In this document: in pieces, positions 169 through 32,400 of the stretch
Position numbering within the stretch: position 1 is the first letter of the stretch
Layout of the letters: each line of letters starts with the position of its first letter
NCBI GenBank assembly: GCA_017499595.2
Contig: JAFIQS020000017.1
Coordinates: 1 to 64,000 of the forward strand
Source: Psilocybe cubensis
Taxonomy: Eukaryota
DNA length: 64,000 nucleotides
Direction: 5' to 3'
Position numbers and translations under genes: made by a program
Notes under the pieces: model-generated
Databases searched by the model: none
The model's input: only the letters and a program-made list of their open reading frames with translations
What the model was told of the DNA's origin: nothing

Positions 169-723
169 AGCCCTAACCTAACCCCAACCCTAAGCTAACT
201 AAGTCTAACCTTAGTAGGAAGTAAGGTAGGCGTGTGAACTTCCGAAAGGCATGTGATTGTGAAGGGCCGGATCTAATTTAGTACATGGGAAAAGTTACTT
301 AGTACCTCGGGAAAAGTTCCTTAGTACCGTGGAAACATTTTTGATGGACCGGATCATGAACTGTCCAATTAAGATTCACAACAATCAATCAATTGATTGT
401 TAGGTAAGGACCCAGGTAAGCTATTTATACTCTTGACATGAGAATATTCCCATGTCACGGTTACTCGGAGCCACGTAACCAGAGTATTTTATATCCATGT
501 GATTCACATCACAGTCAATAACCCACGATGTCAAAGAACAAAAGTGTTGGATCCACTTTTGACAGGTTACCATGTGCCACATCGACCCGTGACACTCTGT
601 TCATCAGAGATCTGTCTAACTTGACAATAAACATTGACAGATTTGTGATAGTCGGTAAGATACATGACAGCTGCGCAGCATCACTTCACGCGCTGTCATC
701 GGATGTTCCAGAACATTCCTTCT

Positions 724-1728
724 AAGAATAGCCACTGAAGAGTCTATAAAGACGAAAGGGCTGGCTGCTGATAACAATCAACAGCCCTCAAGTACTCGTC
801 CTCTCCCAAACTCCTGCCGCTTGTGCCTTCCCAACTCATCCGGGAGCCCTTTCGTCACTGATCTTGCCCTTGACTCGGGGACGTTTCATCGACATGTTGG
901 CTGCCTCACGGCAAGCGGGGCCCTTTTTCTTTCACTCGCTCACGCCTTCTATGTTGGGTTACGGAGGTCATACAAACTCGTTTTAGTCTAGCTGCGGGGT
1001 TATCCAGCTATGATGACTTTGTAATTCGAGGGCGCGCAGTTCTTCAATGGGTATGGACATCAGGTGAGAGTACACTGGGGGTTGTCAGGACCAGCTCTGC
1101 TGGATACGCTCCTGGCAAGTCGGTTGCAGCCGGCGACACTACCGAATTGCTGGGACGTCCTAAAGCTTGTGGGTACCGCCGACCGCTGGAAACAGCCTAG
1201 GCACCGGTGGCGACCGGGTATGGTAACAATCCCCAAGATTCAGCGAAAGCTGGAATGGATAATCAGCAGCGAATCCGTAACGGTCACGCCGACGGAAGCG
1301 TTCAACGACTAGGTGGTAGTGGGGTCTTCGGATCTTAAGATATAGTCTTGGGAGTGGGGAAACCCACATCTGGTATCTAAACCGCGCCTCGCTGCTTACG
1401 AGGACGGCCCGAAGTCCAGAACCGCTTAAAACGCGGGTGACCCGGCCTCCCCTTAGTAAAGGGAGTTAACACAAGGATGGACAAATAGTTCGTCGCCGGA
1501 AATGAACCTGTGGCTGTAATGGCTGATGTGGCGCCCCTTGGTAAAGGGCTTAAAGGGTATTAGCCTGCCATGTCCAATGGCATGAGAGTGTCCCTTGGTA
1601 AAGGACTTAATAGGCAATAGCCTGCTCTTTTGTCATGAGCGGTATGTAGTGATCGTTTGCCTGTACGGTAGCGCCCATTGCTTGCACTGGTCCACGCCCG
1701 TAAAAAATCACGAGCCGCTGGCCTTCTT
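724..1728 (+). ncRNA. Hammerhead ribozyme split by a group I intron (halves 724-788 and 1718-1728)
   Basis: GCCA-CTGAAGA-GTCT/ATAA/AGAC-GAAA-GGGCTG...CAGCCC-T | insert | C-TGGC. Joining the halves reproduces the intact copy at 6064-6139. Confidence 0.9.
789..1717 (+). mobile_element. Group I intron, subgroup IC1-like, 929 nt (copy 1)
   Basis: Boundaries are defined by comparison with empty units: exon ends in U, intron ends in G. IGS GGGGTTGT (1078-1085) pairs with exon ACAGCCCT (781-788) with the U.G wobble. P AATTGCTGGGA 1145-1155, Q AATCAGCAGC 1261-1270, R GTTCAACGACTA 1300-1311, S AAGATATAGTCT 1337-1348. P3 CACTACC/GGTAGTG, P8 with TTCG loop, P9 GTGGG-GAAA-CCCAC, P5b GCTG-GAAA-CAGC. Confidence 0.93.
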
Positions 1729-1829
1729 TCCATTTAACTCACAGTTTAAACAAGTCGCTCGCACCTCGCTTCGCTCGGTGCTCGCTCCCCCCCTAAACCC
1801 AACGACTTTGCTATTACCCAACAGCTACT

Positions 1830-4800
1830 ATGTCTTCCACTTACTCTGCTGCCTTCTCTCGTGCCATGTCCCCCACCCTGGACGCACTCACCCAGGCTGT
1901 CGTCAACAACACAGTTTTTGGCGTCAACGACGAAGCTGGCCGCCACAACGCCCTCATCGACGAGTTGGCCACTGTCGTCATCAAGAAAATAGCTGAGTGC
2001 CGCTCCATTGACCAGATTGTAGACTGCGTCTTTTTTGACTATCGTGCTGCCCTTAGGGAGTTTCTCCTCAACCTCGCATCGTGGTGCGATAAGAGGGAAA
2101 CAGTCAAGGCTAGCCTCGAGCGCCTTGAACTTGCCGTTAGCGCAGGCAACACCCCCAATCGCCTTCGGGTGAAGGCTCCCGAGTTCCAACTTACGAAGGA
2201 ATTCGCGGATGCCGGGTCAGCGGAAGCTCTTCGAGTTTCCTCTACGTTCTCCACCGCTCGTGATGTCTTCCAAAAGGCAATCAACGACGGCGCCATTCAG
2301 GCGAAAAAGGACGAACTGGCCTTTTGGGATGATAAATGCGCACTCAATAACTGTTATGAAGCTGCTGCCCTCATCGTTAAGACAACTTACGATGATCGCA
2401 AATCCAGCTATAAGCTCCCCGTTTTCTCTACAGACAACAAGGGAGTTCGTCGAATAACAGATTGGGTAGTGTCACCGCAGAAGAAGGCTGAATGCAGCGC
2501 ATTGCAAACCATTTTGCCAGCCATCTTCTCTCATATCAAACAGATTGTCAACTTGCGCCACCGCGCTTTGGCAATCAAGATTGAGAAAAAGCGGTCGACT
2601 GCGGCAACAGCCGATGTCGAGATGGCCGATGCGACCAAACCAGGTCCATCGATTCAATCCCTTATTGATAAGGGCTTGAATGCACGTCTCAAGAAGCTCA
2701 ACCTTGGATCTGTGGGCAAGAAGGCAAGTTCTCGTAACCCTTCACCCATAACTCTGGATACTAATTACTATTCTAATTACCCAGACTTTGTCTGGCCAGA
2801 ATTCGTCCAAGGCTCCTCAACCTCAGGCCAAGAAAGCTGGCCCTTCGAAATTCAAACCCTCGTCGACGCCTTCGCAGAAGAAGCCCCAAACCAAGGCTTC
2901 CAACAAGGTCGACAACAAGAAGAAAGGGAAGGGGAGAGCTCCCGTCAAGAACGATCCAAAGGGAAAGGGAAAGGCAAGAGCCTAGACGCGCGGTCTAATG
3001 TAGTACCTTTTACGTCGGTAAGACCCGCCTTCCCCAACTCTATTCCTGACGATATACTCACCATGACTAAAACAGACGCAGTTTCTTTTGTACACTTACA
3101 TACGCCGATCTCATTCTTGTTGGCTGGCCAGTATCGTAGTAGTGTACACTGTAGTCCTGGTGTGGTGGTCCCTGTAGATATAGCAAATGATTTGTCACTC
3201 GGACTCAATTATATGTTTTTTACTCTACCTTCTCAAAGTCTGATCATGCAAGCATGGAATGATTTTCAACGAAGAATAAGATGGCGTATCTATTTTTTGT
3301 TTAAGGAAGGCATGAACAAACCTTTTGATCCAGATTACGGAGTAAGCTCAAAAAAGAAAGAGAAACCTCCAGTATTACCGCAATACATGGAACTTGGCCT
3401 TTCGATGGGACGTCGGTACGTGCAACGCACGATCGCAAGTATCCCGGAAGAAGCCCTTACGGAGATGCGAAAGCACGCGTTCTCTCCTAAAAGGGACAAG
3501 ATCCGTAAGTTTCTTATCGATAACAACTATGTTATTACGATGACAGATAAGAATCTTGGCCTCGCGGTGTCTGAACGCGACTGGATATTAAGGAATGAGC
3601 TCAATCTTCTTAAAGATGAACGTAACTATGAAGAGTTAGAATTCGAAGTTGCGCAAGAAGTAATGAAGAGCAAAATGATCCAGATGCAAACTCTTGCACA
3701 TACCGTCGAAGATGAACATCTGTTTCTATTTGAACTTGGGTTGTCTCGATTCTTTCTATCGAATGTACCGGAAGACGGATCATCGTTCAAGTACCCTCAA
3801 TTTCATGGTATACCTAAAATCCACAAAAAACCTACTGGATTTAGGCCCATAATTCCGTGTCACTCTGTAGTATTTAATCCTGCAGCCAAGTTTGTATCAA
3901 AAGAGCTTAAGCCGATTATTAAATCGACTCCTTCAATCATTCACGGAACGAAGGATCTCTTTACGAGATTAAGCCAATTGCGTATAGACCCCAAACGACA
4001 ATGGTATTTTGTCACCGGGGATGTAGTTGCTTTCTATCCCAATATTCCGTTGGACTTGTGCATCGAAATCGTTTGTAATATGTACGAGGAATGGTTACTC
4101 AACGCTTCGGAAGAAAACACTGCATTAGCCCATATTAATCCAAATTCGTTAGAGAATAACTTGGTTAAATTGGGCATCTTTAAACGTGCTATCGAGATTG
4201 GCAATACGCAATTGATAACACAACATGGGTCTAGATATTTTAGACAAAAAAATGGCCTCGCAATGGGCGTCGCGGATTCTCCGGACCTTGCTAACCTCTT
4301 TGGAGCCCATTTTGAAATAAAGTCAAAAATCTTAGACCACCCAAACGTGGCCTTCTATGGAAGGTACATCGACGATTGTTTCGCAATTGTTTACGCCGAG
4401 TCCGAAGCACTTGCACTTAATCTTATTAAAGAAACAATAAAGTTCGATGGTTGTGTTATCGAATGGGCTGTTTCCTCGTCGGGATGTCAATTTCTCGATG
4501 CTTTCATATTCAAGGAGTCTGGAAAACTTCATTGGAAGCCATTTGTCAAGACAGGAAACAACCGAGAACGAGTTCCATGGGTATCACATCATCCTTTGGA
4601 CGTCAAACGTGGCGTCTACATTGGAGAGTTATCCAGGTTAGCCGTGCTATGTAGTACCAAGGAAATCTACATCGGAGCAATTAGAGACCTTAACGCTCTC
4701 TATTTGATGCGCGGTTATCCCGAAAACCTAGTCATGTCTTGGTGTAAGAAGAATATACAAGAACGTTGGGAAAAGCGATTCGCTTTACGAGTCGCAGAGC

Positions 4801-5360
4801 ACGACGAATCCATTCTTGTACTTAAAACCAGATTTGATCAGGTATGGAATTGGTTTTCAGCTGCTGAACTTGGAAAAACTGTTACCGAGTACTGGTCGGC
4901 ATGGTATGAACATGCCGAGAAAGGTTTGTATAGTGCAGACTCGTCCAGACCCCTTATCAAACCAGATCCAAATTACGTTCACGACCTCGATGATGTTCGC
5001 CCGGAGCTGTTCACACAGATCCTCGTGGACGGAGAAACTGAGTTCGTACCGGATTTGAGGAAGATAGGACTACTCGGAAGTCGTTGGATAGTATCGCGAA
5101 AACGCAATACTAATCTTTTCGACCTTGCAAATGTGTGGAAGAAAACAGTCTTTCGTAAACTGGATGAAGACATCGCTGAAAAAGGTGGTGTTGTTCCCGA
5201 AACTCAAAACGTTAATGAAACTTATCATTCTGCTTTAGTTGAAGCTGCTGAACAGATAAGTATCGAAAGTGATAACGAGATAATACTTCATAGACGTTCA
5301 ATCTCACAAGAGAGGGAACATCCAGAATTCGGCAGAATATCCAAATCTTACAACCGATGA
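1830..5360 (+). CDS. Penelope-like ORF1-reverse transcriptase polyprotein, 1176 aa, subfamily A (copy 1)
   Basis: HGIPKIHKKPTGFRPII, FVTGDVVAFYPNI (motif A), QKNGLAMGVADSPDLANLF (B), YGRYIDDCF (C), FLD, thumb region RGYP. Helical N-terminal region; no endonuclease domain. Confidence 0.93.
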   Translation: MSSTYSAAFSRAMSPTLDALTQAVVNNTVFGVNDEAGRHNALIDELATVVIKKIAECRSIDQIVDCVFFDYRAALREFLLNLASWCDKRETVKASLERLELAVSAGNTPNRLRVKAPEFQLTKEFADAGSAEALRVSSTFSTARDVFQKAINDGAIQAKKDELAFWDDKCALNNCYEAAALIVKTTYDDRKSSYKLPVFSTDNKGVRRITDWVVSPQKKAECSALQTILPAIFSHIKQIVNLRHRALAIKIEKKRSTAATADVEMADATKPGPSIQSLIDKGLNARLKKLNLGSVGKKASSRNPSPITLDTNYYSNYPDFVWPEFVQGSSTSGQESWPFEIQTLVDAFAEEAPNQGFQQGRQQEEREGESSRQERSKGKGKGKSLDARSNVVPFTSVRPAFPNSIPDDILTMTKTDAVSFVHLHTPISFLLAGQYRSSVHCSPGVVVPVDIANDLSLGLNYMFFTLPSQSLIMQAWNDFQRRIRWRIYFLFKEGMNKPFDPDYGVSSKKKEKPPVLPQYMELGLSMGRRYVQRTIASIPEEALTEMRKHAFSPKRDKIRKFLIDNNYVITMTDKNLGLAVSERDWILRNELNLLKDERNYEELEFEVAQEVMKSKMIQMQTLAHTVEDEHLFLFELGLSRFFLSNVPEDGSSFKYPQFHGIPKIHKKPTGFRPIIPCHSVVFNPAAKFVSKELKPIIKSTPSIIHGTKDLFTRLSQLRIDPKRQWYFVTGDVVAFYPNIPLDLCIEIVCNMYEEWLLNASEENTALAHINPNSLENNLVKLGIFKRAIEIGNTQLITQHGSRYFRQKNGLAMGVADSPDLANLFGAHFEIKSKILDHPNVAFYGRYIDDCFAIVYAESEALALNLIKETIKFDGCVIEWAVSSSGCQFLDAFIFKESGKLHWKPFVKTGNNRERVPWVSHHPLDVKRGVYIGELSRLAVLCSTKEIYIGAIRDLNALYLMRGYPENLVMSWCKKNIQERWEKRFALRVAEHDESILVLKTRFDQVWNWFSAAELGKTVTEYWSAWYEHAEKGLYSADSSRPLIKPDPNYVHDLDDVRPELFTQILVDGETEFVPDLRKIGLLGSRWIVSRKRNTNLFDLANVWKKTVFRKLDEDIAEKGGVVPETQNVNETYHSALVEAAEQISIESDNEIILHRRSISQEREHPEFGRISKSYNR
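2724..2784 (+). other. Putative 61-nt GC-AG spliceosomal intron inside the ORF. Equivalents at 9539-9599, 14685-14745, 19827-19887, 25034-25094, 30376-30436
   Basis: AAG|GCAAGT donor, CTAAT branch-like motifs, CCAG| acceptor, and length typical of fungal introns. Splicing joins codon 298 in frame to the Lys-rich frame ending at 2985. Confidence 0.75.
2785..2985 (+). CDS. Alternative-frame exon 2 giving the basic C-terminal tail of a spliced ~364-aa ORF1 protein (1830-2723 + 2785-2985)
   Basis: TLSGQNSSKAPQPQAKKAGPSK...KKKGKGRAPVKNDPKGKGKARA*. Open in all six copies; the A/B difference includes an in-frame 3-nt indel and K/R swaps. Confidence 0.7.
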   Translation, partial: TLSGQNSSKAPQPQAKKAGPSKFKPSSTPSQKKPQTKASNKVDNKKKGKGRAPVKNDPKGKGKARA

Positions 5361-6063
5361 AAAGAATACTAGCGCGTAAGGCGTAAAGCATTAGAAAAAA
5401 ACCCTAACCGTAAGTATTCCTTGCTACAAAGTAACAAACATCTACTTACAAGCAACACATTGGATTAAATAGCTAAACCTAAACCTAAACCCTAAACCCT
5501 AAACCCTAAGCCCTAACCTAACCCCAACCCTAAGCTAACTAAGTCTAACCTTAGTAGGAAGTAAGGTAGGCGTGTGAACTTCCGAAAGGCATGTGATTGT
5601 GAAGGGCCGGATCTAATTTAGTACATGGGAAAAGTTACTTAGTACCTCGGGAAAAGTTCCTTAGTACCGTGGAAACATTTTTGATGGACCGGATCATGAA
5701 CTGTCCAATTAAGATTCACAACAATCAATCAATTGATTGTTAGGTAAGGACCCAGGTAAGCTATTTATACTCTTGACATGAGAATATTCCCATGTCACGG
5801 TTACTCGGAGCCACGTAACCAGAGTATTTTATATCCATGTGATTCACATCACAGTCAATAACCCACGATGTCAAAGAACAAAAGTGTTGGATCCACTTTT
5901 GACAGGTTACCATGTGCCACATCGACCCGTGACACTCTGTTCATCAGAGATCTGTCTAACTTGACAATAAACATTGACAGATTTGTGATAGTCGGTAAGA
6001 TACATGACAGCTGCGCAGCATCACTTCACGCGATGTCATCGGATGTTCCAGAACATTCCTTCT

Positions 6064-6139: not shown

Positions 6140-6795
6140 TCCATTTAACTCACAGTTTAAACAAGTCGCTCGCACCTCGCTTCGCTCGGTGCTCGCTCCC
6201 CCCCTAAACCTAAACCCTAAACCCTAAACCCTAAACCCTAACCTAACCCCAACCCTAAGCTAACTAAGTCTAACCTTAGTAGGAAGTAAGGTAGGCGTGT
6301 GAACTTCCGAACGGCATGTGATTGTGAAGGGCCGGATCTAATTTAGTACATGGGAAAAGTTACTTAGTACTTCGGGAAAAGTTCCTTAGTACCGTGGAAA
6401 CATTTTTGATGGACCGGATCATGAACTGTCCAATTAAGATTCACAACAATCAATCATTCTATTGTTTGATTGTTAGGTAAGGACCCAGGTAAGCTATTTA
6501 TACTCTAGACATGTGAATATTCCCATGTCGCGGTTACTCGGAGCCACGTAACCAGAGTAATCTATATCCATGTGATTCACATCACAGTCAATAACCCACG
6601 ATGTCAAAGAACAAAAGTGTTGGATCCACTTTTGACAGGTTACCATGTGCCACATCGACCCGTGACACTCTGTTCATCAGAGACCTGTCTAACTTGACAA
6701 TAAACATTGACAGATTTGTGATAGTCGGTAAGATACATGACAGCTGCGCAGCATCACTTCACGCGCTGTCATCGGATGTCTAGAACATTCCTTCT

Positions 6796-6871
6796 AAGAA
6801 TAGCCACTGAAGAGTCTATAAAGACGAAAGGGCTGGTTGTTGGGATCCCCCAACAGCCCTCTGGCCTTCTT
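6796..6871 (+). ncRNA. Type I hammerhead ribozyme, intact (stem III variant B)
   Basis: Same core and stems; distal stem III is GTTGTTGGGATCCCCCAA. Confidence 0.92.
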
Positions 6872-8644: not shown

Positions 8645-11600
8645 ATGTCATCCCAATACTCTGCTGCATTCTCTCGTGCCATGTCCCCTACCCTGGACGC
8701 ACTCACCCAGGCCGTCGTCAACAACACTGTCTTCGGCGTCAACGATGAAGCAGGCCGCCATAACGCTCTTATCGACGAGCTGGCCACTGTGGTCATCAAA
8801 AAAATAGCTGAGTGCCGCTCCGTTGACCAAGTCATAGACTGCGTCTTTTTTGACTATCGTGCTGCCCTCAGGGAGTTTCTCCTCAACCTCGCATCGTGGT
8901 GCGACAAGAGGGAAACAGTCAAGGCTAGCCTCGAGCGCCTTGAATCTGCCGTTAGCGCAGGCAACACGCCCAATCGCCTTAAGGTGAAGGCACCCGAGTT
9001 CCAACTTACGAAGGAATTCGCGGATGCCGGGTCAGCGGAGGCTCTTCGAGTCTCCACTACGTTCTCTTCCGCTCGTGATGCCTTCCAAAAGGCAATTAAC
9101 GACGGCGCCGTTCAGGCGAAAAAGGACGAGCTGGCTTTTTGGGATGATAAATGCGCACTCAACTCTTGCTACGAAGCTGCTGCCCTCATCGTTAAGGCAA
9201 CTTACGATGATCGCAAATCCAGCTACAAGCTCCCTGTTTTCTCTACAGACAACAAGGGAGTTCGACGTATAGCAGAGTGGGTAGTGTCTCCGCAAAAGAA
9301 AGCCGAATGCAGTGCGCTGCAAACTATACTGCCGGCGATCTTTTCTCATATCAAACAGATTGTCAACATGCGCCACCGCGCCTTGGCAATTAAGATTGAG
9401 AAAAAGCGGACGACTGCGGCAACAGCCGATGTCGAGATGGCCGATGCGACCAAACCAGGTCCATCGATTCAATCCCTTATTGATAAGGGCTTGAATGCAC
9501 GTCTCAAAAAGCTCAACCTTGGATCTGTGGGCAAGAAGGCAAGTTTTCGTAACCCTTCACCCATAATTCTGGACACTAATTATTACTCTAATTACCCAGA
9601 CTTTGTCTGGCCAGAATTCGTCCAAGGCTCCTCAACCTCAGGCCAGGAAAGCTGGCCCTTCGAAACCCAAGTCGTCGTCGACGCCTTCGCAGAGGAAGCC
9701 TCAAACCAAGGCTTCCAACAAGGTCGACAACAAGAAGAAAGGGAAGGGGAGAGCTCCCGTCAAGAACAACGATCCAAAGGGAAAGGGAAAGGCAAGAGCC
9801 TAGACGCGCGGTCTACTGTAGCATCATTTACGTCGGTGAGACCCGCCTTCCCCAACTCTATTCCTGACGATATACTCACCATGACTAAAACAGACGCAGT
9901 TTCTTTTGTACACCTCAATACCCCGATTTCATTCTTATTGGCTGGCCAGTATAGATCTAGTGTACACTGTAGTCCTGGTGTTTCGGTCCCTGTTGATGTA
10001 GCAAATGATTTATCTCTTGGACTCAATTATATGTTTTTTACACTGCCTTCTAAAAATCTGATCATGCAAGCATGGAATGATTTTCAACGAAGAATAAGAT
10101 GGCGTATCTATTTTTTGTTTAAAGAAGGCATGAATAAACCTTTCGATCCAGACTATGGAGTAAGCTCTAAAAAGAAAGAGAAACCTCCAATGTTACCGCA
10201 ATTTATGGAACTTGGCCTTTCAATGGGACGTCGGTACGTTATTAAAACGATCGCAAGTATCCCGGAAGAAGCCCTTAAAGAGATGCGAAAGCACGCGTTC
10301 TCTCCTAAAAGGGACAAGATCCAAAAGTTTCTTTTCGATAACAACTATGTTATTACGATGACAGATAAGAATCTTGGCCTCGCGGTGTCTGAACGCGACT
10401 GGATATTAAGGAATGAGCTCAATCTTCTTGAAGATGAACGCAACTACGAAGAGTTAGAATTCGAAGTTGCGCAAGAAGTTATGAAGAGCAAAATGATTCA
10501 GATGCAAACTCTCGCACGTACCGTCGAAGATGAACATCTGTTTCTATTTGAACTTGGGTTGTCTCGATTCTTTCTATCGAATGTACCGGAAGACGGATCA
10601 TCGTTCAAGTATCCTCAATTTCATGGTATACCTAAAATCCACAAGAAACCTACTGGATTTAGGCCCATAATTCCGTGTCACTCTGTAGTATTTAATCCTG
10701 CAGCCAAGTTTGTATCAAAAGAGCTTAAGCCGATTATTAAATCGACTCCTTCAATCATTCACGGAACGAAGGATCTCTTTACGAGATTAAGCCAATTGCG
10801 TATAGACCCCAAACGACAATGGTATTTTGTCACCGGGGATGTAGTTGCTTTCTATCCCAATATTCCGTTGGACTTGTGCATCGAAATCGTTTGTAATATG
10901 TACGAGGAATGGTTACTCAACGCTTCGGAAGAGAACACTGCATTAGCCCATATTAATCCAAATTCGTTAGAGAATAACTTGGTTAAATTGGGCATCTTTA
11001 AACGTGCTATCGAGATTGGCAATACGCAATTGATAACACAACATGGGTCTAGATATTTTAGACAAAAAAATGGCCTCGCAATGGGCGTCGCGGATTCTCC
11101 GGACCTTGCTAACCTCTTTGGAGCCCATTTTGAAATAAAGTCAAATATCTTAGACCACCCAAACGTGGCCTTCTATGGAAGGTACATCGACGATTGTTTC
11201 GCAATTGTTTACGCCGAGTCCGAAGCACTTGCACTTAATCTTATTAAAGAAACAATAAAGTTCGATGGTTGTGTTATCGAATGGGCTGTTTCCTCGTCGG
11301 GATGTCAATTTCTCGATGCTTTCATATTCAAGGAGTCTGGAAAACTTCATTGGAAGCCATTTGTCAAGACAGGAAACAACCGAGAACGAGTTCCATGGGT
11401 ATCACATCATCCTTTGGACGTCAAACGTGGCGTCTACATTGGAGAGTTATCCAGGTTAGCCGTGCTATGTAGTACCAAGGAAATCTACATCGGAGCAATT
11501 AGAGACCTTAACGCTCTCTATTTGATGCGCGGTTATCCCGAAAACCTAGTCATGTCTTGGTGTAAGAAGAATATACAAGAACGTTGGGAAAAGCGATTCG

Positions 11601-13789: not shown

Positions 13790-16700
13790 ATGTCATCCCA
13801 ATACTCTGCTGCATTCTCTCGTGCCATGTCCCCTACCCTGGACGCACTCACCCAGGCCGTCGTCAACAACACTGTCTTCGGCGTCAACGATGAAGCAGGC
13901 CGCCATAACGCTCTTATCGACGAGCTGGCCACTGTGGTCATCAAAAAAATAGCTGAGTGCCGCTCCGTTGACCAAGTCATAGACTGCGTCTTTTTTGACT
14001 ATCGTGCTGCCCTCAGGGAGTTTCTCCTCAACCTCGCATCGTGGTGCGACAAGAGGGAAACAGTCAAGGCTAGCCTCGAGCGCCTTGAATCTGCCGTTAG
14101 CGCAGGCAACACGCCCAATCGCCTTAAGGTGAAGGCACCCGAGTTCCAACTTACGAAGGAATTCGCGGATGCCGGGTCAGCGGAGGCTCTTCGAGTCTCC
14201 ACTACGTTCTCTTCCGCTCGTGATGCCTTCCAAAAGGCAATTAACGACGGCGCCGTTCAGGCGAAAAAGGACGAGCTGGCTTTTTGGGATGATAAATGCG
14301 GCGCTCAACTCTTGCTACGAAGCTGCTGCCCTCATCGTTAAGGCAACTTACGATGATCGCAAATCCAGCTACAAGCTCCCTGTTTTCTCTACAGACAACA
14401 AGGGAGTTCGACGTATAGCAGAGTGGGTAGTGTCTCCGCAAAAGAAAGCCGAATGCAGTGCGCTGCAAACTATACTGCCGGCGATCTTTTCTCATATCAA
14501 ACAGATTGTCAACATGCGCCACCGCGCCTTGGCAATTAAGATTGAGAAAAAGCGGACGACTGCGGCAACAGCCGATGTCGAGATGGCCGATGCGACCAAA
14601 CCAGGTCCATCGATTCAATCCCTTATTGATAAGGGCTTGAATGCACGTCTCAAAAAGCTCAACCTTGGATCTGTGGGCAAGAAGGCAAGTTTTCGTAACC
14701 CTTCACCCATAATTCTGGACACTAATTATTACTCTAATTACCCAGACTTTGTCTGGCCAGAATTCGTCCAAGGCTCCTCAACCTCAGGCCAGGAAAGCTG
14801 GCCCTTCGAAACCCAAGTCGTCGTCGACGCCTTCGCAGAGGAAGCCTCAAACCAAGGCTTCCAACAAGGTCGACAACAAGAAGAAAGGGAAGGGGAGAGC
14901 TCCCGTCAAGAACAACGATCCAAAGGGAAAGGGAAAGGCAAGAGCCTAGACGCGCGGTCTACTGTAGCATCATTTACGTCGGTGAGACCCGCCTTCCCCA
15001 ACTCTATTCCTGACGATATACTCACCATGACTAAAACAGACGCAGTTTCTTTTGTACACCTCAATACCCCGATTTCATTCTTATTGGCTGGCCAGTATAG
15101 ATCTAGTGTACACTGTAGTCCTGGTGTTTCGGTCCCTGTTGATGTAGCAAATGATTTATCTCTTGGACTCAATTATATGTTTTTTACACTGCCTTCTAAA
15201 AATCTGATCATGCAAGCATGGAATGATTTTCAACGAAGAATAAGATGGCGTATCTATTTTTTGTTTAAAGAAGGCATGAATAAACCTTTCGATCCAGACT
15301 ATGGAGTAAGCTCTAAAAAGAAAGAGAAACCTCCAATGTTACCGCAATTTATGGAACTTGGCCTTTCAATGGGACGTCGGTACGTTATTAAAACGATCGC
15401 AAGTATCCCGGAAGAAGCCCTTAAAGAGATGCGAAAGCACGCGTTCTCTCCTAAAAGGGACAAGATCCAAAAGTTTCTTTTCGATAACAACTATGTTATT
15501 ACGATGACAGATAAGAATCTTGGCCTCGCGGTGTCTGAACGCGACTGGATATTAAGGAATGAGCTCAATCTTCTTGAAGATGAACGCAACTACGAAGAGT
15601 TAGAATTCGAAGTTGCGCAAGAAGTTATGAAGAGCAAAATGATTCAGATGCAAACTCTCGCACGTACCGTCGAAGATGAACATCTGTTTCTATTTGAACT
15701 TGGGTTGTCTCGATTCTTTCTATCGAATGTACCGGAAGACGGATCATCGTTCAAGTATCCTCAATTTCATGGTATACCTAAAATCCACAAGAAACCTACT
15801 GGATTTAGGCCCATAATTCCGTGTCACTCTGTAGTATTTAATCCTGCAGCCAAGTTTGTATCAAAAGAGCTTAAGCCGATTATTAAATCGACTCCTTCAA
15901 TCATTCACGGAACGAAGGATCTCTTTACGAGATTAAGCCAATTGCGTATAGACCCCAAACGACAATGGTATTTTGTCACCGGGGATGTAGTTGCTTTCTA
16001 TCCCAATATTCCGTTGGACTTGTGCATCGAAATCGTTTGTAATATGTACGAGGAATGGTTACTCAACGCTTCGGAAGAGAACACTGCATTAGCCCATATT
16101 AATCCAAATTCGTTAGAGAATAACTTGGTTAAATTGGGCATCTTTAAACGTGCTATCGAGATTGGCAATACGCAATTGATAACACAACATGGGTCTAGAT
16201 ATTTTAGACAAAAAAATGGCCTCGCAATGGGCGTCGCGGATTCTCCGGACCTTGCTAACCTCTTTGGAGCCCATTTTGAAATAAAGTCAAAAATCTTAGA
16301 CCACCCAAACGTGGCCTTCTATGGAAGGTACATCGACGATTGTTTCGCAATTGTTTACGCCGAGTCCGAAGCACTTGCACTTAATCTTATTAAAGAAACA
16401 ATAAAGTTCGATGGTTGTGTTATCGAATGGGCTGTTTCCTCGTCGGGATGTCAATTTCTCGATGCTTTCATATTCAAGGAGTCTGGAAAACTTCATTGGA
16501 AGCCATTTGTCAAGACAGGAAACAACCGAGAACGAGTTCCATGGGTATCACATCATCCTTTGGACGTCAAACGTGGCGTCTACATTGGAGAGTTATCCAG
16601 GTTAGCCGTGCTATGTAGTACCAAGGAAATCTACATCGGAGCAATTAGAGACCTTAACGCTCTCTATTTGATGCGCGGTTATCCCGAAAACCTAGTCATG

Positions 16701-17324
16701 TCTTGGTGTAAGAAGAATATACAAGAACGTTGGGAAAAGCGATTCGCTTTACGAGTCGCAGAGCACGACGAATCCATTCTTGTACTTAAAACCAGATTTG
16801 ATCAGGTATGGAATTGGTTTTCAGCTGCTGAACTTGGAAAGACTGTTACCGAGTACTGGTCGGCATGGTATGAACATGCCGAGAAAGGTTTGTATAGTGC
16901 AGACTCGTCCAGACCCCTTATCAAACCAGATCCAAATTACGTTCACGACCTCGATGATGTTCGCCCGGAGCTGTTCACACAGATCCTCGTGGACGGAGAA
17001 ACTGAGTTCGTACCGGATTTGAGGAAGATAGGACTACTCGGAAGTCGTTGGATAGTATCGCGAAAACGCAATACTAATCTTTTCGACCTTGCAAATGTGT
17101 GGAAGAAAACAGTCTTTCGTAAACTGGATGAAAACATCGCTGAAAAAGGTGGTGTTGTTCCCGAAACTCAAAACGTTAATGAAACTTATCATTCTGCTTT
17201 AGTTGAAGCTGCTGAACAGATAAGTATCGAAAGTGATAACGAGATAATACTTCATAGACGTTCAATCTCACAAGAGAGGGAACATCCAGAATTCGGCAGA
17301 ATATCCAAATCTTACAACCGATGA
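13790..17324 (+). pseudogene. Penelope-like ORF1-RT, subfamily B, +1 frameshift near 14300 (copy 3)
   Basis: AAATGCGGCGCTCAAC versus AAATGCGCACTCAAC in copy 2. The ORF splits into 13790-14341 and 14169-17324. Confidence 0.88.
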
Positions 17325-18755: not shown

Positions 18756-18831
18756 AAGAATAGCCACTGAAGAGTCTATAAAGACGAAAGGGCTGGCTGC
18801 TGATAACAATCAACAGCCCTCTGGCCTTCTT
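18756..18831 (+). ncRNA. Hammerhead ribozyme, intact (variant A), upstream of ORF copy 4
   Basis: Same motif, no intron. Confidence 0.9.
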
Positions 18832-18932: not shown

Positions 18933-21900
18933 ATGTCTTCCACTTACTCTGCTGCCTTCTCTCGTGCCATGTCCCCCACCCTGGACGCACTCACCCAGGC
19001 TGTCGTCAACAACACAGTTTTTGGCGTCAACGACGAAGCTGGCCGCCACAACGCCCTCATCGACGAGTTGGCCACTGTCGTCATCAAGAAAATAGCTGAG
19101 TGCCGCTCCATTGACCAGATTGTAGACTGCGTCTTTTTTGACTATCGTGCTGCCCTTAGGGAGTTTCTCCTCAACCTCGCATCGTGGTGCGATAAGAGGG
19201 AAACAGTCAAGGCTAGCCTCGAGCGCCTTGAACTTGCCGTTAGCGCAGGCAACACCCCCAATCGCCTTCGGGTGAAGGCTCCCGAGTTCCAACTTACGAA
19301 GGAATTCGCGGATGCCGGGTCAGCGGAAGCTCTTCGAGTTTCCTCTACGTTCTCCACCGCTCGTGATGTCTTCCAAAAGGCAATCAACGACGGCGCCATT
19401 CAGGCGAAAAAGGACGAACTGGCCTTTTGGGATGATAAATGCGCACTCAATAACTGTTATGAAGCTGCTGCCCTCATCGTTAAGACAACTTACGATGATC
19501 GCAAATCCAGCTATAAGCTCCCCGTTTTCTCTACAGACAACAAGGGAGTTCGTCGAATAACAGATTGGGTAGTGTCACCGCAGAAGAAGGCTGAATGCAG
19601 CGCATTGCAAACCATTTTGCCAGCCATCTTCTCTCATATCAAACAGATTGTCAACTTGCGCCACCGCGCTTTGGCAATCAAGATTGAGAAAAAGCGGTCG
19701 ACTGCGGCAACAGCCGATGTCGAGATGGCCGATGCGACCAAACCAGGTCCATCGATTCAATCCCTTATTGATAAGGGCTTGAATGCACGTCTCAAGAAGC
19801 TCAACCTTGGATCTGTGGGCAAGAAGGCAAGTTCTCGTAACCCTTCACCCATAATTCTGGATACTAATTACTATTCTAATTACCCAGACTTTGTCTGGCC
19901 AGAATTCGTCCAAGGCTCCTCAACCTCAGGCCAAGAAAGCTGGCCCTTCGAAATTCAAACCCTCGTCGACGCCTTCGCAGAAGAAGCCCCAAACCAAGGC
20001 TTCCAACAAGGTCGACAACAAGAAGAAAGGGAAGGGGAGAGCTCCCGTCAAGAACGATCCAAAGGGAAAGGGAAAGGCAAGAGCCTAGACGCGCGGTCTA
20101 ATGTAGTACCTTTTACGTCGGTAAGACCCGCCTTCCCCAACTCTATTCCTGACGATATACTCACCATGACTAAAACAGACGCAGTTTCTTTTGTACACTT
20201 ACATACGCCGATCTCATTCTTGTTGGCTGGCCAGTATCGTAGTAGTGTACACTGTAGTCCTGGTGTGGTGGTCCCTGTAGATATAGCAAATGATTTGTCA
20301 CTCGGACTCAATTATATGTTTTTTACTCTGCCTTCTCAAAGTCTGATCATGCAAGCATGGAATGATTTTCAACGAAGAATAAGATGGCGTATCTATTTTT
20401 TGTTTAAGGAAGGCATGAACAAACCTTTTGATCCAGATTACGGAGTAAGCTCAAAAAAGAAAGAGAAACCTCCAGTATTACCGCAATACATGGAACTTGG
20501 CCTTTCGATGGGACGTCGGTACGTGCAACGCACGATCGCAAGTATCCCGGAAGAAGCCCTTACGGAGATGCGAAAGCACGCGTTCTCTCCTAAAAGGGAC
20601 AAGATCCGTAAGTTTCTTATCGATAACAACTATGTTATTACGATGACAGATAAGAATCTTGGCCTCGCGGTGTCTGAACGCGACTGGATATTAAGGAATG
20701 AGCTCAATCTTCTTGAAGATGAACGTAACTATGAAGAGTTAGAATTCGAAGTTGCGCAAGAAGTAATGAAGAGCAAAATGATCCAGATGCAAACTCTTGC
20801 ACGTACCGTCGAAGATGAACATCTGTTTCTATTTGAACTTGGGTTGTCTCGATTCTTTCTATCGAATGTACCGGAAGACGGATCATCGTTCAAGTATCCT
20901 CAATTTCATGGTATACCTAAAATCCACAAAAAACCTACTGGATTTAGACCCATAATTCCGTGTCACTCTGTAGTATTTAATCCTGCAGCCAAGTTTGTAT
21001 CAAAAGAGCTTAAGCCGATTATTAAATCGACTCCTTCAATCATTCACGGAACGAAGGATCTCTTTACGAGATTAAGCCAATTGCGTATAGACCCCAAACG
21101 ACAATGGTATTTTGTCACCGGGGATGTAGTTGCTTTCTATCCCAATATTCCGTTGGACTTGTGCATCGAAATCGTTTGTAATATGTACGAGGAATGGTTA
21201 CTCAACGCTTCGGAAGAAAACACTGCATTAGCCCATATTAATCCAAATTCGTTAGAGAATAACTTGGTTAAATTGGGCATCTTTAAACGTGCTATCGAGA
21301 TTGGCAATACGCAATTGATAACACAACATGGGTCTAGATATTTTAGACAAAAAAATGGCCTCGCAATGGGCGTCGCGGATTCTCCGGACCTTGCTAACCT
21401 CTTTGGAGCCCATTTTGAAATAAAGTCAAAAATCTTAGACCACCCAAACGTGGCCTTCTATGGAAGGTACATCGACGATTGTTTCGCAATTGTTTACGCC
21501 GAGTCCGAAGCACTTGCACTTAATCTTATTAAAGAAACAATAAAGTTCGATGGTTGTGTTATCGAATGGGCTGTTTCCTCGTCGGGATGTCAATTTCTCG
21601 ATGCTTTCATATTCAAGGAGTCTGGAAAACTTCATTGGAAGCCATTTGTCAAGACAGGAAACAACCGAGAACGAGTTCCATGGGTATCACATCATCCTTT
21701 GGACGTCAAACGTGGCGTCTACATTGGAGAGTTATCCAGGTTAGCCGTGCTATGTAGTACCAAGGAAATCTACATCGGAGCAATTAGAGACCTTAACGCT
21801 CTCTATTTGATGCGCGGTTATCCCGAAAACCTAGTCATGTCTTGGTGTAAGAAGAATATACAAGAACGTTGGGAAAAGCGATTCGCTTTACGAGTCGCAG

Positions 21901-24138: not shown

Positions 24139-27100
24139 ATGTCATCCCAATATTCTGCTGCTTTCTCTCGTGCCATGTCCCCCACCCTGGACGCACTCAC
24201 CCAGGCCGTCGTCAACAACACCGTCTTCGGCGTCAACGATGAAGCAGGCCGCCATAACGCTCTGATCGACGAGCTGGCCACTGTGGTCATCAAAAAAATA
24301 GCTGAGTGCCGCTCCGTTGACCAAGTCATAGACTGCGTCTTTTTTGACTATCGTGCTGCCCTTAGGGAGTTTCTCCACAACCTCGCATCGTGGTGCGATA
24401 AGAGGGAAACAGTCAAGGCTAGCCTCGAGCGCCTTGAATCTGCCGTTAGCGCAGGCAACACGCCCAATCGCCTTAAGGTGAAGGCACCCGAGTTCCAACT
24501 TACGAAGGAATTCGCGGATGCCGGGTCAGCGGAGGCTCTTCGAGTCTCCACTACGTTCTCTTCCGCTCGTGATGCCTTCCAAAAGGCAATTAACGACGGC
24601 GCCGTTCAGGCGAAAAAGGACGAGCTGGCTTTTTGGGATGATAAATGCGGCGCTCAACTCTTGCTACGAAGCTGCTGCCCTCATCGTTAAGGCAACTTAC
24701 GATGATCGCAAATCCAGCTACAAGCTCCCTGTTTTCTCTACAGACAACAAGGGAGTTCGACGTATAGCAGAGTGGGTAGTGTCTCCGCAAAAGAAAGCCG
24801 AATGCAGTGCGCTGCAAACTATACTGCCGGCGATCTTTTCTCATATCAAACAGATTGTCAACATGCGCCACCGCGCCTTGGCAATTAAGATTGAGAAAAA
24901 GCGGACGACTGCGGCAACAGCCGATGTCGAGATGGCCGATGCGACCAAACCAGGTCCATCGATTCAATCCCTTATTGATAAGGGCTTGAATGCACGTCTC
25001 AAAAAGCTCAACCTTGGATCTGTGGGCAAGAAGGCAAGTTTTCGTAACCCTTCACCCATAATTCTGGACACTAATTATTACTCTAATTACCCAGACTTTG
25101 TCTGGCCAGAATTCGTCCAAGGCTCCTCAACCTCAGGCCAGGAAAGCTGGCCCTTCGAAACCCAAGTCGTCGTCGACGCCTTCGCAGAGGAAGCCTCAAA
25201 CCAAGGCTTCCAACAAGGTCGACAACAAGAAGAAAGGGAAGGGGAGAGCTCCCGTCAAGAACAACGATCCAAAGGGAAAGGGAAAGGCAAGAGCCTAGAC
25301 GCGCGGTCTACTGTAGCATCATTTACGTCGGTGAGACCCGCCTTCCCCAACTCTATTCCTGACGATATACTCACCATGACTAAAACAGACGCAGTTTCTT
25401 TTGTACACCTCAATACCCCGATTTCATTCTTATTGGCTGGCCAGTATAGATCTAGTGTACACTGTAGTCCTGGTGTTTCGGTCCCTGTTGATGTAGCAAA
25501 TGATTTATCTCTTGGACTCAATTATATGTTTTTTACACTGCCTTCTAAAAGTCTGATCATGCAAGCATGGAATGATTTTCAACGAAGAATAAGATGGCGT
25601 ATCTATTTTTTGTTTAAAGAAGGCATGAATAAACCTTTCGATCCAGACTATGGAGTAAGCTCTAAAAAGAAAGAGAAACCTCCAATGTTACCGCAATTTA
25701 TGGAACTTGGCCTTTCAATGGGACGTCGGTACGTTATTAAAACGATCGCAAGTATCCCGGAAGAAGCCCTTAAAGAGATGCGAAAGCACGCGTTCTCTCC
25801 TAAAAGGGACAAGATCCAAAAGTTTCTTATCGATAACAACTATGTTATTACGATGACAGATAAGAATCTTGGCCTCGCGGTGTCTGAACGCGACTGGATA
25901 TTAAGGAATGAGCTCAATCTTCTTGAAGATGAACGCAACTACGAAGAGTTAGAATTCGAAGTTGCGCAAGAAGTTATGAAGAGCAAAATGATTCAGATGC
26001 AAACTCTCGCACGTACCGTCGAAGATGAACATCTGTTTCTATTTGAACTTGGGTTGTCTCGATTCTTTCTATCGAATGTACCGGAAGACGGATCATCGTT
26101 CAAGTATCCTCAATTTCATGGTATACCTAAAATCCACAAGAAACCTACTGGATTTAGGCCCATAATTCCGTGTCACTCTGTAGTTTTTAATCCTGCAGCC
26201 AAGTTTGTATCAAAAGAGCTTAAGCCGATTATTAAATCGACTCCTTCAATCATTCACGGAACGAAGGATCTCTTTACGAGATTAAGCCAATTGCGTATAG
26301 ACCCCAAACGACAATGGTATTTTGTCACCGGGGATGTAGTCGCTTTCTATCCCAATATTCCGTTGGACTTGTGCATCGAAATCGTTTGTAGTATGTACGA
26401 GGAATGGTTACTCAACGCTTCGGAAGAAAACACTGCATTAGCCCATATTAATCCAAATTCGTTAGAGAATAACTTGGTTAAATTGGGCATCTTTAAACGT
26501 GCTATCGAGATTGGCAATACGCAATTGATAACACAACATGGGTCTAGATATTTTAGACAAAAAAATGGCCTCGCAATGGGCGTCGCGGATTCTCCGGACC
26601 TTGCTAACCTCTTTGGAGCCCATTTTGAAATAAAGTCAAAAATCTTAGACCACCCAAATGTGGCCTTCTATGGAAGGTACATCGACGATTGTTTCGCAAT
26701 TGTTTACGCCGAGTCCGAAGCACTTGCACTTAATCTTATTAAAGAAACAATAAAGTTCGATGGTTGTGTTATCGAACGGGCTGTTTCCTTGTCGGGATGT
26801 CAATTTCTCGATGCTTTCATATTCAAGGAGTCTGGAAAACTTCATTGGAAGCCATTTGTCAAGACAGGAAACAACCGAGAACGAGTTCCATGGGTATCAC
26901 ATCATCCTTTGGACGTCAAACGTGGCGTCTACATTGGAGAGTTATCCAGGTTAGCCGTGCTATGTAGTACCAAGGAAATCTACATTGGAGCAATTAGAGA
27001 CCTTAACGCTCTCTATTTGATGCGCGGTTATCCCGAAAACCTAGTCATGTCTTGGTGTAAGAAGAATATACAAGAACGTTGGAAAAAGCGATTCGCTTTA

Positions 27101-29481: not shown

Positions 29482-32400
29482 ATGTCTTCCACTTACTCTG
29501 CTGCCTTCTCTCGTGCCATGTCCCCCACCCTGGACGCACTCACCCAGGCTGTCGTCAACAACACAGTTTTTGGCGTCAACGACGAAGCTGGCCGCCACAA
29601 CGCCCTCATCGACGAGTTGGCCACTGTCGTCATCAAGAAAATAGCTGAGTGCCGCTCCATTGACCAGATTGTAGACTGCGTCTTTTTTGACTATCGTGCT
29701 GCCCTTAGGGAGTTTCTCCTCAACCTCGCATCGTGGTGCGATAAGAGGGAAACAGTCAAGGCTAGCCTCGAGCGCCTTGAACTTGCCGTTAGCGCAGGCA
29801 ACACCCCCAATCGCCTTCGGGTGAAGGCTCCCGAGTTCCAACTTACGAAGGAATTCGCGGATGCCGGGTCAGCGGAAGCTCTTCGAGTTTCCTCTACGTT
29901 CTCCACCGCTCGTGATGTCTTCCAAAAGGCAATCAACGACGGCGCCATTCAGGCGAAAAAGGACGAACTGGCCTTTTGGGATGATAAATGCGCACTCAAT
30001 AACTGTTATGAAGCTGCTGCCCTCATCGTTAAGACAACTTACGATGATCGCAAATCCAGCTATAAGCTCCCCGTTTTCTCTACAGACAACAAGGGAGTTC
30101 GTCGAATAACAGATTGGGTAGTGTCACCGCAGAAGAAGGCTGAATGCAGCGCATTGCAAACCATTTTGCCAGCCATCTTCTCTCATATCAAACAGATTGT
30201 CAACTTGCGCCACCGCGCTTTGGCAATCAAGATTGAGAAAAAGCGGTCGACTGCGGCAACAGCCGATGTCGAGATGGCCGATGCGACCAAACCAGGTCCA
30301 TCGATTCAATCCCTTATTGATAAGGGCTTGAATGCACGTCTCAAGAAGCTCAACCTTGGATCTGTGGGCAAGAAGGCAAGTTCTCGTAACCCTTCACCCA
30401 TAATTCTGGATACTAATTACTATTCTAATTACCCAGACTTTGTCTGGCCAGAATTCGTCCAAGGCTCCTCAACCTCAGGCCAAGAAAGCTGGCCCTTCGA
30501 AATTCAAACCCTCGTCGACGCCTTCGCAGAAGAAGCCCCAAACCAAGGCTTCCAACAAGGTCGACAACAAGAAGAAAGGGAAGGGGAGAGCTCCCGTCAA
30601 GAACGATCCAAAGGGAAAGGGAAAGGCAAGAGCCTAGACGCGCGGTCTAATGTAGTACCTTTTACGTCGGTAAGACCCGCCTTCCCCAACTCTATTCCTG
30701 ACGATATACTCACCATGACTAAAACAGACGCAGTTTCTTTTGTACACTTACATACGCCGATCTCATTCTTGTTGGCTGGCCAGTATCGTAGTAGTGTACA
30801 CTGTAGTCCTGGTGTGGTGGTCCCTGTAGATATAGCAAATGATTTGTCGCTCGGACTCAATTATATGTTTTTTACTCTGCCTTCTCAAAGTCTGATCATG
30901 CAAGCATGGAATGATTTTCAACGAAGAATAAGATGGCGTATCTATTTTTTGTTTAAGGAAGGCATGAACAAACCTTTTGATCCAGATTACGGAGTAAGCT
31001 CAAAAAAGAAAGAGAAACCTCCAGTATTACCGCAATACATGGAACTTGGCCTTTCGATGGGACGTCGGTACGTGCAACGCACGATCGCAAGTATCCCGGA
31101 AGAAGCCCTTACGGAGATGCGAAAGCACGCGTTCTCTCCTAAAAGGGACAAGATCCGTAAGTTTCTTATCGATAACAACTATGTTATTACGATGACAGAT
31201 AAGAATCTTGGCCTCGCGGTGTCTGAACGCGACTGGATATTAAGGAATGAGCTCAATCTTCTTGAAGATGAACGTAACTATGAAGAGTTAGAATTCGAAG
31301 TTGCGCAAGAAGTAATGAAGAGCAAAATGATCCAGATGCAAACTCTTGCACGTACCGTCGAAGATGAACATCTGTTTCTATTTGAACTTGGGTTGTCTCG
31401 ATTCTTTCTATCGAATGTACCGGAAGACGGATCATCGTTCAAGTATCCTCAATTTCATGGTATACCTAAAATCCACAAGAAACCTACTGGATTTAGGCCC
31501 ATAATTCCGTGTCACTCTGTAGTATTTAATCCTGCAGCCAAGTTTGTATCAAAAGAGCTTAAGCCGATTATTAAATCGACTCCTTCAATCATTCACGGAA
31601 CGAAGGATCTCTTTACGAGATTAAGCCAATTGCGTATAGACCCCAAACGACAATGGTATTTTGTCACCGGGGATGTAGTTGCTTTCTATCCCAATATTCC
31701 GTTGGACTTGTGCATCGAAATCGTTTGTAGTATGTACGAGGAATGGTTACTCAATGCTTCGGAAGAAAACACTGCATTAGCCCATATTAATCCAAATTCG
31801 TTAGAGAATAACTTGGTTAAATTGGGCATCTTTAAACGTGCTATCGAGATTGGCAATACGCAATTGATAACACAACATGGGTCTAGATATTTTAGACAAA
31901 AAAATGGCCTCGCAATGGGCGTCGCGGATTCTCCGGACCTTGCTAACCTCTTTGGAGCCCATTTTGAAATAAAGTCAAAAATCTTAGACCACCCTAATGT
32001 GGCCTTCTATGGAAGGTACATCGACGATTGTTTTGCAATTGTTTACGCCGAGTCCGAAGCACTTGCACTTAATTTAATTAAAGAAACAATAAAGTTCGAT
32101 GGTTGTGTTATCGAATGGGCTGTTTCCTCGTCGGGATGTCAATTTCTCGATGCTTTCATATTCAAGGAGTCTGGAAAACTTCATTGGAAGCCTTTTGTCA
32201 AGACAGGAAACAACCGAGAACGAGTTCCATGGGTATCACATCATCCTTTAGACGTCAAACGTGGCGTTTACATTGGAGAGTTATCCAGGTTAGCCGTGCT
32301 ATGTAGTACCAAGGAAATCTACATTGGAGCAATTAGAGACCTTAACGCTCTCTATTTGATGCGCGGTTATCCCGAAAACCTAGTCATGTCTTGGTGTAAG

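Follow-up and report, generated by a model that had tools for sequence, protein, structure and literature searches.

A candidate splice switch between ORF1 and ORF1-RT products in a telomeric Penelope-like element of Psilocybe cubensis

Can a retroelement that encodes its ORF1 protein and its reverse transcriptase (RT) in one genomic frame also make the ORF1 protein alone? This question is raised by positions 1 to 64,000 of contig JAFIQS020000017.1 (forward strand) of the Psilocybe cubensis assembly GCA_017499595.2, a stretch of 64,000 nucleotides (nt) that we refer to as the window. Six copies of a Penelope-like retroelement are arrayed there head-to-tail after a telomeric repeat, and the long open reading frame (ORF) of the first copy encodes 1176 amino acids (aa). 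An earlier reading made from the letters alone (the sequence-only reading) had proposed that a 61-nt intron in this frame, when retained, permits synthesis of an ORF1-RT fusion and, when removed, of a shorter ORF1 protein. After comparing the locus with its relatives, we consider it likely that the single 1176-aa frame holds a short spliceosomal intron used as a switch between ORF1 and ORF1-RT products. The sections of Craig et al. 2021 (PMC8557442) consulted here describe the significance of intron retention in Penelope-like elements as unknown. We found no description in the literature of a splice-dependent ORF1/RT switch in these elements, although an earlier mention is possible in Gladyshev and Arkhipova 2007 (Athena/Coprina) or in supplements.

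All signals of the proposed intron were present where the sequence-only reading had placed them (Table 1). The donor AAG/GCAAGT (the slash marks the splice site) spans positions 2721-2729, so that the intron begins at 2724, and it falls in phase 0 because the distance from the start of the frame (2724-1830 = 894) equals 3x298. The acceptor CCAG lies at 2781-2784, and the GC content of the intron is 39% compared with 51% in its flanks. The two products that had been postulated were also recovered: the unspliced reading is open from 1830 to 5360 and gives the 1176-aa ORF1-RT fusion, and splicing in silico joins the 298 codons of the first exon to a Lys-rich tail of 66 aa, for a predicted product of 364 aa. 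This tail (TLSGQNSSK...KGKGKARA) is 29% Lys plus Arg, and its TAG stop codon at 2983-2985 stands 38 nt ahead of the conserved RT anchor. As claimed before, the same layout recurs in all six copies, which fall into two sequence types (A, copies 1, 4, and 6; B, copies 2, 3, and 5). The motif AAGGCAAGT occurs once per copy (at 2721, 9536, 14682, 19824, 25031, and 30373), all six long ORFs run through the intron and overlap region, and the A and B types differ in this region by substitutions plus one 3-nt indel (AAC).

We then compared this region with related elements. Metagenome contigs were scanned with an alignment of 21 proteins, which gave 326 matches confirmed by tblastn, and 80 loci with 29-66% amino acid identity were kept. 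Both an ORF1 C-terminal and an RT N-terminal anchor were present in 42 of these, 33 had the RT anchor only, and 5 had neither; counts of 44 given below are these 42 relatives plus window types A and B. The ORF1 and RT anchors were in the same frame in 42 of 42 relatives, and the long frame was stop-free between the anchors in 42 of 44 loci, with L039 and L075 having one stop each, inside an anchor. Three-frame translations of the relatives showed an intron-like stretch after ..KK that reads K-VS or K-VR in frame 0, equivalent to AAG/GTNAGT, and a basic peptide in the +1 frame that follows the intron and ends shortly before the RT domain. An intron of 46-61 nt was predicted at the same position in every relative, always with a GT donor. 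The best donor near the end of ORF1 was likewise GT in all 42 relatives, and it was in phase 0 in 43 of 44 loci. The 22 of 33 RT-anchor-only loci with at least 300 nt of upstream sequence belong to more distant clades; in 19 of them frame 0 was open for at least 121 codons, and most had a basic +1-frame tail ending 20-236 nt before the RT.

Intron lengths were predicted with two rules that take no account of reading frame. When the best-scoring donor near the end of ORF1 was paired with the nearest YAG whose last base lies 45 nt or more beyond it, the predicted introns measured 46 nt (1 locus), 49 nt (13), 52 nt (7), 55 nt (5), 58 nt (13), or 61 nt (5), and were thus 1 mod 3 in length in 44 of 44 loci. 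When the acceptor was instead taken as the first AG to follow the earliest strict CTRAY motif, 29 of 30 introns were 1 mod 3, the exception (L030) being a case in which a second donor was wrongly chosen. Strict CTRAY motifs were present in these 30 of the 44 predicted introns and the other 14 carried looser motifs such as ACTCAC; GC content was lower in the intron than in the flanks in 41 of 44. The introns comprised 42 distinct sequences in 36 clusters and contained no stop triplet in frame 0, compared with 70 in the +1 frame and 65 in the +2 frame; expressed as stop-free introns, these frames scored 44, 5, and 6 of 44, respectively. The absence of stops from frame 0 alone suggests that the intron is kept translatable in frame with ORF1 and RT.

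The sequence downstream of the intron is constrained in the +1 frame. After in silico splicing, the tails of the 44 loci were 42-99 aa long with a Lys plus Arg content of 25-39%; 27 of the 44 have KGKG or GKGK at the tail end, and clade-specific motifs (YIPKPGR, YVPPPY) were also found. To assess selection across the overlap, we matched loci whose tails are equally long and compared six independent pairs. Synonymous and non-synonymous codon differences numbered 53 and 51 in the +1 frame, 19 and 85 in frame 0, and 13 and 83 in the +2 frame, and the 128 differences were distributed 71/27/30 over frame-0 codon positions 1, 2, and 3. Because 71 of the 128 differences fell at frame-0 position 1, where codons of the +1 frame have their third base, and because the +1 frame had by far the most synonymous changes, we conclude that the +1-frame tail is under selection and that frame 0 behaves like its shadow. 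The sequence-only reading had named a lack of conservation of the alternative frame in related elements as an outcome that would count against it; in the relatives that frame is conserved.

Frame 0 nevertheless remains open over the tail. None of the 43 loci tested had a frame-0 stop in the overlap, whereas permuting each tail's own codons would leave 2.2 loci open (L051 omitted); with synonymous resampling given the tail protein, 43 of 44 were open and 1.3 were expected. L051 was scored as closed in the latter test only because phase 0 was assumed for a donor that is in phase 1; between its anchors this locus has no stop. In the window itself, openness of the long frame over the tail was matched with p = 0.0055 (A) and in 0 of 2000 (B) synonymous resamplings, and in fractions of 0.007 (A) and 0.001 (B) of within-tail codon permutations. 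An ATG in frame 0 was absent from the overlap in 44 of 44 loci, and one between the tail stop and RT residue ~430 was present in only 20 of 44, so that the RT lacks a start codon of its own.

Two further features of the tails were observed. YVPPPY is found in the tails of L037, L045-L048, L050, L052-L054, L059, L065, L067, and L079, with YVPPPL in L058; several of these tails are RG-rich rather than Lys-rich, and YIPKPGR belongs to other clades. YVPPPY resembles the PPxY motif of retroviral Gag late domains. In the window, the coding of KGKGK as AAG GGA produces, as a by-product, G_GGA_AAG heptamers (2959-2973) that have the shape of a -1 slippery site.

Table 1. Positions of the candidate intron, its predicted products, and other features in the window
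Feature	Position	Strand	Remarks
Long frame (frame 0), 1176-aa ORF1-linker-RT fusion from unspliced RNA	1830..5360	+	From translation and HMMER alignment
Exon 1, ORF1 body	1830..2723	+	298 codons; long-helix; conserved C-terminal motif DVEMADATKPGPSIQSLIDK
Upstream GT (GTGGGC)	2712..2717	+	Phase 0; its use as donor would remove 73 nt and lead into the same tail frame
Candidate spliceosomal intron, copy 1 (A type)	2724..2784	+	61 nt; GC-AG; phase 0; no frame-0 stop
Branch-point-like CTAAT	2761..2765	+	Its A 20 nt before the acceptor; second CTAAT at 2773-2777
+1-frame tail of the predicted spliced product	2785..2985	+	66 aa; Lys-rich; overlaps the frame-0 linker
Frame-0 linker, tail stop to conserved RT N-terminus	2986..3023	+	Without start codon
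RT part	3024..5360	+	PNSIPD.., TDKNLG, YIDD; same frame as ORF1
Same candidate intron, copy 2 (B type)	9539..9599	+	
Same candidate intron, copy 3 (B type)	14685..14745	+	
Same candidate intron, copy 4 (A type)	19827..19887	+	
Same candidate intron, copy 5 (B type)	25034..25094	+	
Same candidate intron, copy 6 (A type)	30376..30436	+	
Element ORFs, copies 1-6	1830-5360, 8645-12178, 14169-17324, 18933-22463, 24518-27673, 29482-33012	+	
Hammerhead-core-like motif	735-757, 6075, 6807, 7548, 12894, 13622, 18046, 18767, 23178, 23973, 28387, 33726	+	
Host gene of fungal NLR kind, adjoining the telomeric array	50053-53190	+	NPHP3_N (NACHT-type) piece, then 867 aa of ankyrin repeats

One way in which these features could operate together is as follows. 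On unspliced RNA, translation would proceed from the ORF1 start through the intron and the linker into RT, producing the ORF1-RT fusion, in which the linker would be unconstrained in sequence. On spliced RNA, the loss of 61 nt (1 mod 3) would carry the ribosome into the +1 frame, where it would translate the basic 66-aa tail, terminate at 2985, and release a 364-aa ORF1 protein without RT. The spliced share of the RNA would thereby determine how much structural protein is made relative to enzyme, much as alternative splicing governs Gag and Gag-Pol output in BARE1 and copia, and the intron would be transmitted to new copies only via unspliced RNA. The tail may bind nucleic acid or direct nuclear import, and the RT may act on the RNA that encoded it.

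The part played by the GC donor is a separate matter. The sequence-only reading had assigned to this donor the setting of the ratio between ORF1 protein and RT, and here it did not fare as well as with the switch itself. The switch gained strong support from the two-frame layout, the 1-mod-3 introns, and the selection on the tail in the 42 relatives, and from tail-bearing gene models. In contrast, the GC donor was found only in the two types of the window and in 0 of 42 relatives and, because all 42 have GT, it is not how the family sets its ratio. Within the Psilocybe lineage the GC donor may lower splicing efficiency, and it is probably shared by elements of Psilocybe cyanescens, in which frame 0 reads GKK-AS.

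A broader proposal, which we put forward tentatively, is that the in-frame intron is ancestral to a large clade of telomeric Penelope-like elements in fungi and serves them as a control device. One transcript would yield both a message for an abundant basic-tailed ORF1 protein and an ORF1-RT RNA that is genome and message at once; because RT would be made only from the unspliced form, a cis-acting RT would copy only intron-bearing RNA, which would solve the long-standing puzzle of intron retention in Penelope-like elements, and the GC donor of Psilocybe would be a tuning of the ratio. With the switch as outlined above, the conserved intron would be a splicing-based counterpart of retroviral Gag/Gag-Pol ratio control, with a dual-coding stretch of 42-99 codons, and the persistence of the intron would be a consequence suggested by the encoding of RT on intron-bearing RNA only. 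Gene finders currently report such elements as a "hypothetical protein" of ~360 aa or else as a single long ORF, and both annotations are probably right simultaneously.

Existing annotations, metagenome ORF calls, and assembled reads were also compared with the site. ORF1-only gene models ending in the tail are found in Psilocybe cubensis, P. cyanescens, P. cf. subviscida, and Hypholoma sublateritium, and are also annotated in Hohenbuehelia, Plicaturopsis, Mycena, and Mucidula. The junction NLGS/TLSGQ of gene models P0096 and P0166 fits use of the GT at 2712. Metagenome ORF calls, which are blind to introns, read through the intron in frame 0. Logan contigs of sequencing run X1 (RNA only by guess), compared with positions 700-5420, gave two small contigs (4347-4507 and 4646-4881), and those of runs X5 and X6 gave one piece at 1718-1797 that continues unlike the window; contigs of these three runs contained nothing on 2724-2784. 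Contigs of run X2 (kind unknown, genome-sized) cover the site with the intron in place.

Several of our results weigh against a splice switch or reduce the force of the evidence for it. We infer both the occurrence of splicing at 2724-2784 and its partial extent, and the tail-bearing gene models may be purely ab initio predictions. An intronless (processed) copy, which would have been direct natural testimony to splicing, was absent among the 42 loci and the intron-blind metagenome ORFs. The +1 frame is open about as often as expected: 29 of 43 loci would be open by chance, so that its openness alone is no evidence, and in the window 83% of the shuffles that preserve the long-frame protein leave it open. 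Within the window overlap, the A and B types differ by 8 substitutions distributed 3/2/3 over the codon positions, which favor neither frame; the codon-usage score per codon is slightly better for the long frame (+0.07) than for the tail frame (-0.01), and GC content by codon position does not separate the two. The donor of the window is the sole GC among the 44, and splicing could be weak or lost in this lineage. Finally, the loci came from one tblastn-confirmed set and include some close kin (36 intron clusters, not 44).

We weighed these points together with three other explanations of the layout. If the intron were removed constitutively, the fusion would have to come from the spliced mRNA through a -1 ribosomal frameshift late in the tail, or the RT through re-initiation. 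The RT frame is indeed -1 relative to the tail frame on spliced RNA, two G_GGA_AAG heptamers lie at tail codons 59 and 61 (window 2959-2973), and according to the legend to Fig. 1 of Craig et al. 2021 (PMC8557442) a frameshift accompanied by a pseudoknot can split off ORF1, as depicted for some Athena elements. However, only 11 of 44 loci have a canonical heptamer in the tail frame, the folding of the 103 nt downstream does not surpass that of shuffled sequences (z = -0.05), and the ATG needed for re-initiation is not conserved (20 of 44). Frameshifting on spliced RNA also leaves unexplained why the intron has no frame-0 stops in 44 of 44 loci, with 70 and 65 in the other frames, and why frame 0 stays open over the whole overlap and not just at its end. 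We regard constitutive splicing as very improbable, and we give equally little credence to the opposite possibility, that there is no splicing and the 1176-aa fusion is the only product. The intron signals and the tail would then be by-products, or the tail would be reached by +1 frameshifting after the last +1 stop. That Coprina elements are described, in the part of PMC13159263 consulted, as typically having one ORF agrees with such a view, as do the near-chance openness of the +1 frame given the long-frame protein and the fact that splicing is predicted here from sequence comparison. This view does not account for selection acting in the overlap on the +1 frame rather than on frame 0 (53/51 versus 19/85), for the conservation of the tail motifs and of a tail end just before the RT, or for a donor, a branch-like motif, and an acceptor kept 46-61 nt apart in 44 of 44 loci, with lower GC in 41. 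In addition, +1 stops inside the intron in 39 of 44 loci would confine a frameshift site to a few codons, in which no shared slippery motif was seen.

A third explanation accepts the switch for the family and holds that a T-to-C change in the donor crippled it in the Psilocybe lineage, so that the poor GT at 2712 is used, or mostly fusion is made and ORF1 is supplied by other copies. The restriction of the GC donor to the two types of the window (0 of 42 relatives), the phase and tail frame of GTGGGC at 2712, and the compatibility of the P0096 and P0166 junction with that site all favor it. Yet AAG/GCAAGT matches the donor consensus at all positions but one, and a consensus with this single mismatch is the usual form of working GC-AG introns. 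Moreover, the A and B types both keep the GC donor despite 8% divergence in ORF1, and elements of P. cyanescens, 57-59% identical in ORF1, seem likewise to encode Ala at the donor codon and have kept a similar tail, which suggests that the tail is still expressed. We consider a crippled donor unlikely, if slightly less so than the two preceding explanations, and prefer a splice switch that is still in use.

Comparable devices are found in other retroelements. In retroviruses, the polymerase is translated from unspliced RNA only, and the same RNA serves as the template for copying, much as proposed here; in contrast, spliced retroviral RNAs encode env and accessory genes rather than a Gag-only form, and the Gag/Pol ratio is set by frameshifting or readthrough. 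The comparisons that follow draw on parts of the papers cited. The closest parallel is BARE1, a Ty1/copia long terminal repeat (LTR) element of barley with an alternatively spliced 104-nt intron demonstrated by RT-PCR (Chang et al. 2013, PMC3735527). Both elements have a single structural-polymerase frame in the unspliced RNA and a short intron after the structural part, removal of which shifts the frame and brings in a stop codon, leaving the structural protein only. They differ in that BARE1 is of the LTR type and encodes Gag, protease, and integrase and the present element is Penelope-like and telomeric, and in that splicing was seen directly in BARE1 and the switch described here is predicted from sequence. 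In addition, the shifted frame of BARE1 adds a few residues, whereas that of the present element and its relatives encodes a basic tail of 42-99 aa that is conserved and subject to purifying selection, which makes the overlap truly dual-coding. In Drosophila copia, a spliced Gag-only RNA arises by removal of almost all of pol (2950 nt; cited in PMC3735527), and the Arabidopsis EVD/Ty1-copia element also has a spliced Gag-only subgenomic RNA (PMC5580714). Like these, the present element has one ORF and would obtain an excess of structural protein from alternative splicing rather than frameshifting. Unlike the copia intron, however, the present one is only 61 nt, and the RT sequence would stay in the spliced RNA as an untranslated 3' part.

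Likenesses to other telomeric elements are also apparent. Athena elements of bdelloid rotifers (PMC8557442) are telomeric and endonuclease-less, have a coiled-coil or helical ORF1 upstream of RT and conserved introns, and must likewise keep ORF1 and RT in balance. Their ORF1 is depicted as set off by a pseudoknot-associated frameshift, whereas the relatives described here have one genomic frame (42 of 42), which a 1-mod-3 intron would shift. Coprina-1_Alen of Ascochyta lentis (PMC13159263) resembles the present element in its terminal location, where its ORFs are directed away from the telomere and telomeric repeats separate it from the chromosome, in an ORF1 with coil and disordered regions, and in an RT with DKN and thumb but no endonuclease. 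It is transcribed and has two separate ORFs in A. lentis, whereas Coprina elements typically have one, and the part of that description consulted mentions neither an intron nor a frame overlap.

From its DKN and YIDD motifs, the absence of an endonuclease domain, its telomeric site, and its nearest proteins in Agaricomycetes, the element in the window can be assigned to the endonuclease-less Penelope-like elements found at telomeres, and among these to the fungal (Coprina) kind. A HMMER search against 1.84 billion representative sequences gave 6422 relatives at E <= 0.001; 67 of the best 150 span both the ORF1 and the RT parts, and residues 6-1174 align in a single stretch to a relative of 1172 aa (P0001). 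The nearest named proteins are hypothetical proteins of Agaricomycetes, with those of Psilocybe cubensis being 79-94% identical in full-length alignments. T572-D573-K574-N575-L576-G577 and R845..D848-D849 are invariant across the 21-sequence alignment, and a DKN motif is given as typical of Penelope-like elements in the part of PMC13159263 consulted. Pfam gave nothing significant on the full 1176-aa protein, RT domain included, and no GIY-YIG endonuclease domain at E up to 0.1. Substitutions between the A and B types, distributed over codon positions 1, 2, and 3 as 17/5/50 in the ORF1 body and 12/10/39 in RT, show ordinary coding constraint in both parts. A confident AlphaFold2 model of ORF1 residues 1-298 (pLDDT 79.6) consists mostly of long helices and had no Foldseek match in the PDB at E <= 0.001; RNA binding by ORF1 is conceivable by inference only.

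Three observations concern the coding region as a whole. A second intron candidate, from GTAAGA at 3018 to ACAG at 3075 (58 nt), was rejected because it encodes the near-invariant RT N-terminal residues P402..P406-D407..L410. Divergence between the A and B types is 8.1% in the ORF1 body (1830-2723) and only 2.7% in RT (3101-5360), and GC content at third codon positions is high in ORF1 (0.59) and low in RT (0.40). The two halves seem to have different histories, through recombination between lineages or a module swap.

The sequence-only reading had further credited the element with three RNA-processing chemistries, adding group I and hammerhead ribozymes to the spliceosome. The group I part was borne out by a significant Rfam match (992-1369, 73 bits) inside a 929-nt segment at 789-1717; for the hammerhead, we found a core-like motif that recurs 12 times and an Rfam match that is only sub-threshold. 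This motif, CTGAAGAGTC-loop-GACGAAA, occurs once per terminal repeat unit, always on the + strand. The Rfam match (RAGATH-1 hammerhead, 6782-6866) scored 25.3 bits against a threshold of 56.3 (E 0.86), and the strict hammerhead pattern CTGATGA..GAAAC had 0 matches.

The 929-nt segment is present in copies 1, 2, and 6 and exactly absent from copies 3, 4, and 5 (for example near 18790), in which the short form reads ..CAGCCCT/CTGGCC... It follows a T and has G as its last base, the arrangement expected of a group I intron, and on its 5' side it directly adjoins the hammerhead-like core with its helix. In run X2, the same short junction is seen at a loose end at 1718. Among the relatives, L072 (31% amino acid identity) has significant group I matches at 2143-2461 and 3018-3331 (+ strand; 72.8 and 76.5 bits) upstream of its ORF; none was found in 19 other loci scanned, most of which have little upstream sequence.

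The window begins with (CCCTAAA)n at 1-180, and telomere-like short repeats (for example at 5466-5520) separate the element copies. Copies 3 and 5 (14169-17324 and 24518-27673) have an ORF of only 1051 aa; its first ~45 residues come from translating part of the ORF1 region out of frame, so that ORF1 of these copies is broken upstream of ~residue 170. The repeat unit CCCTAAA, at 1-180 and between the copies, is of the TTTAGGG type. TTAGGG is the telomere repeat of most fungi; the window has the TTTAGGG type, though the nearest named proteins are agaric.

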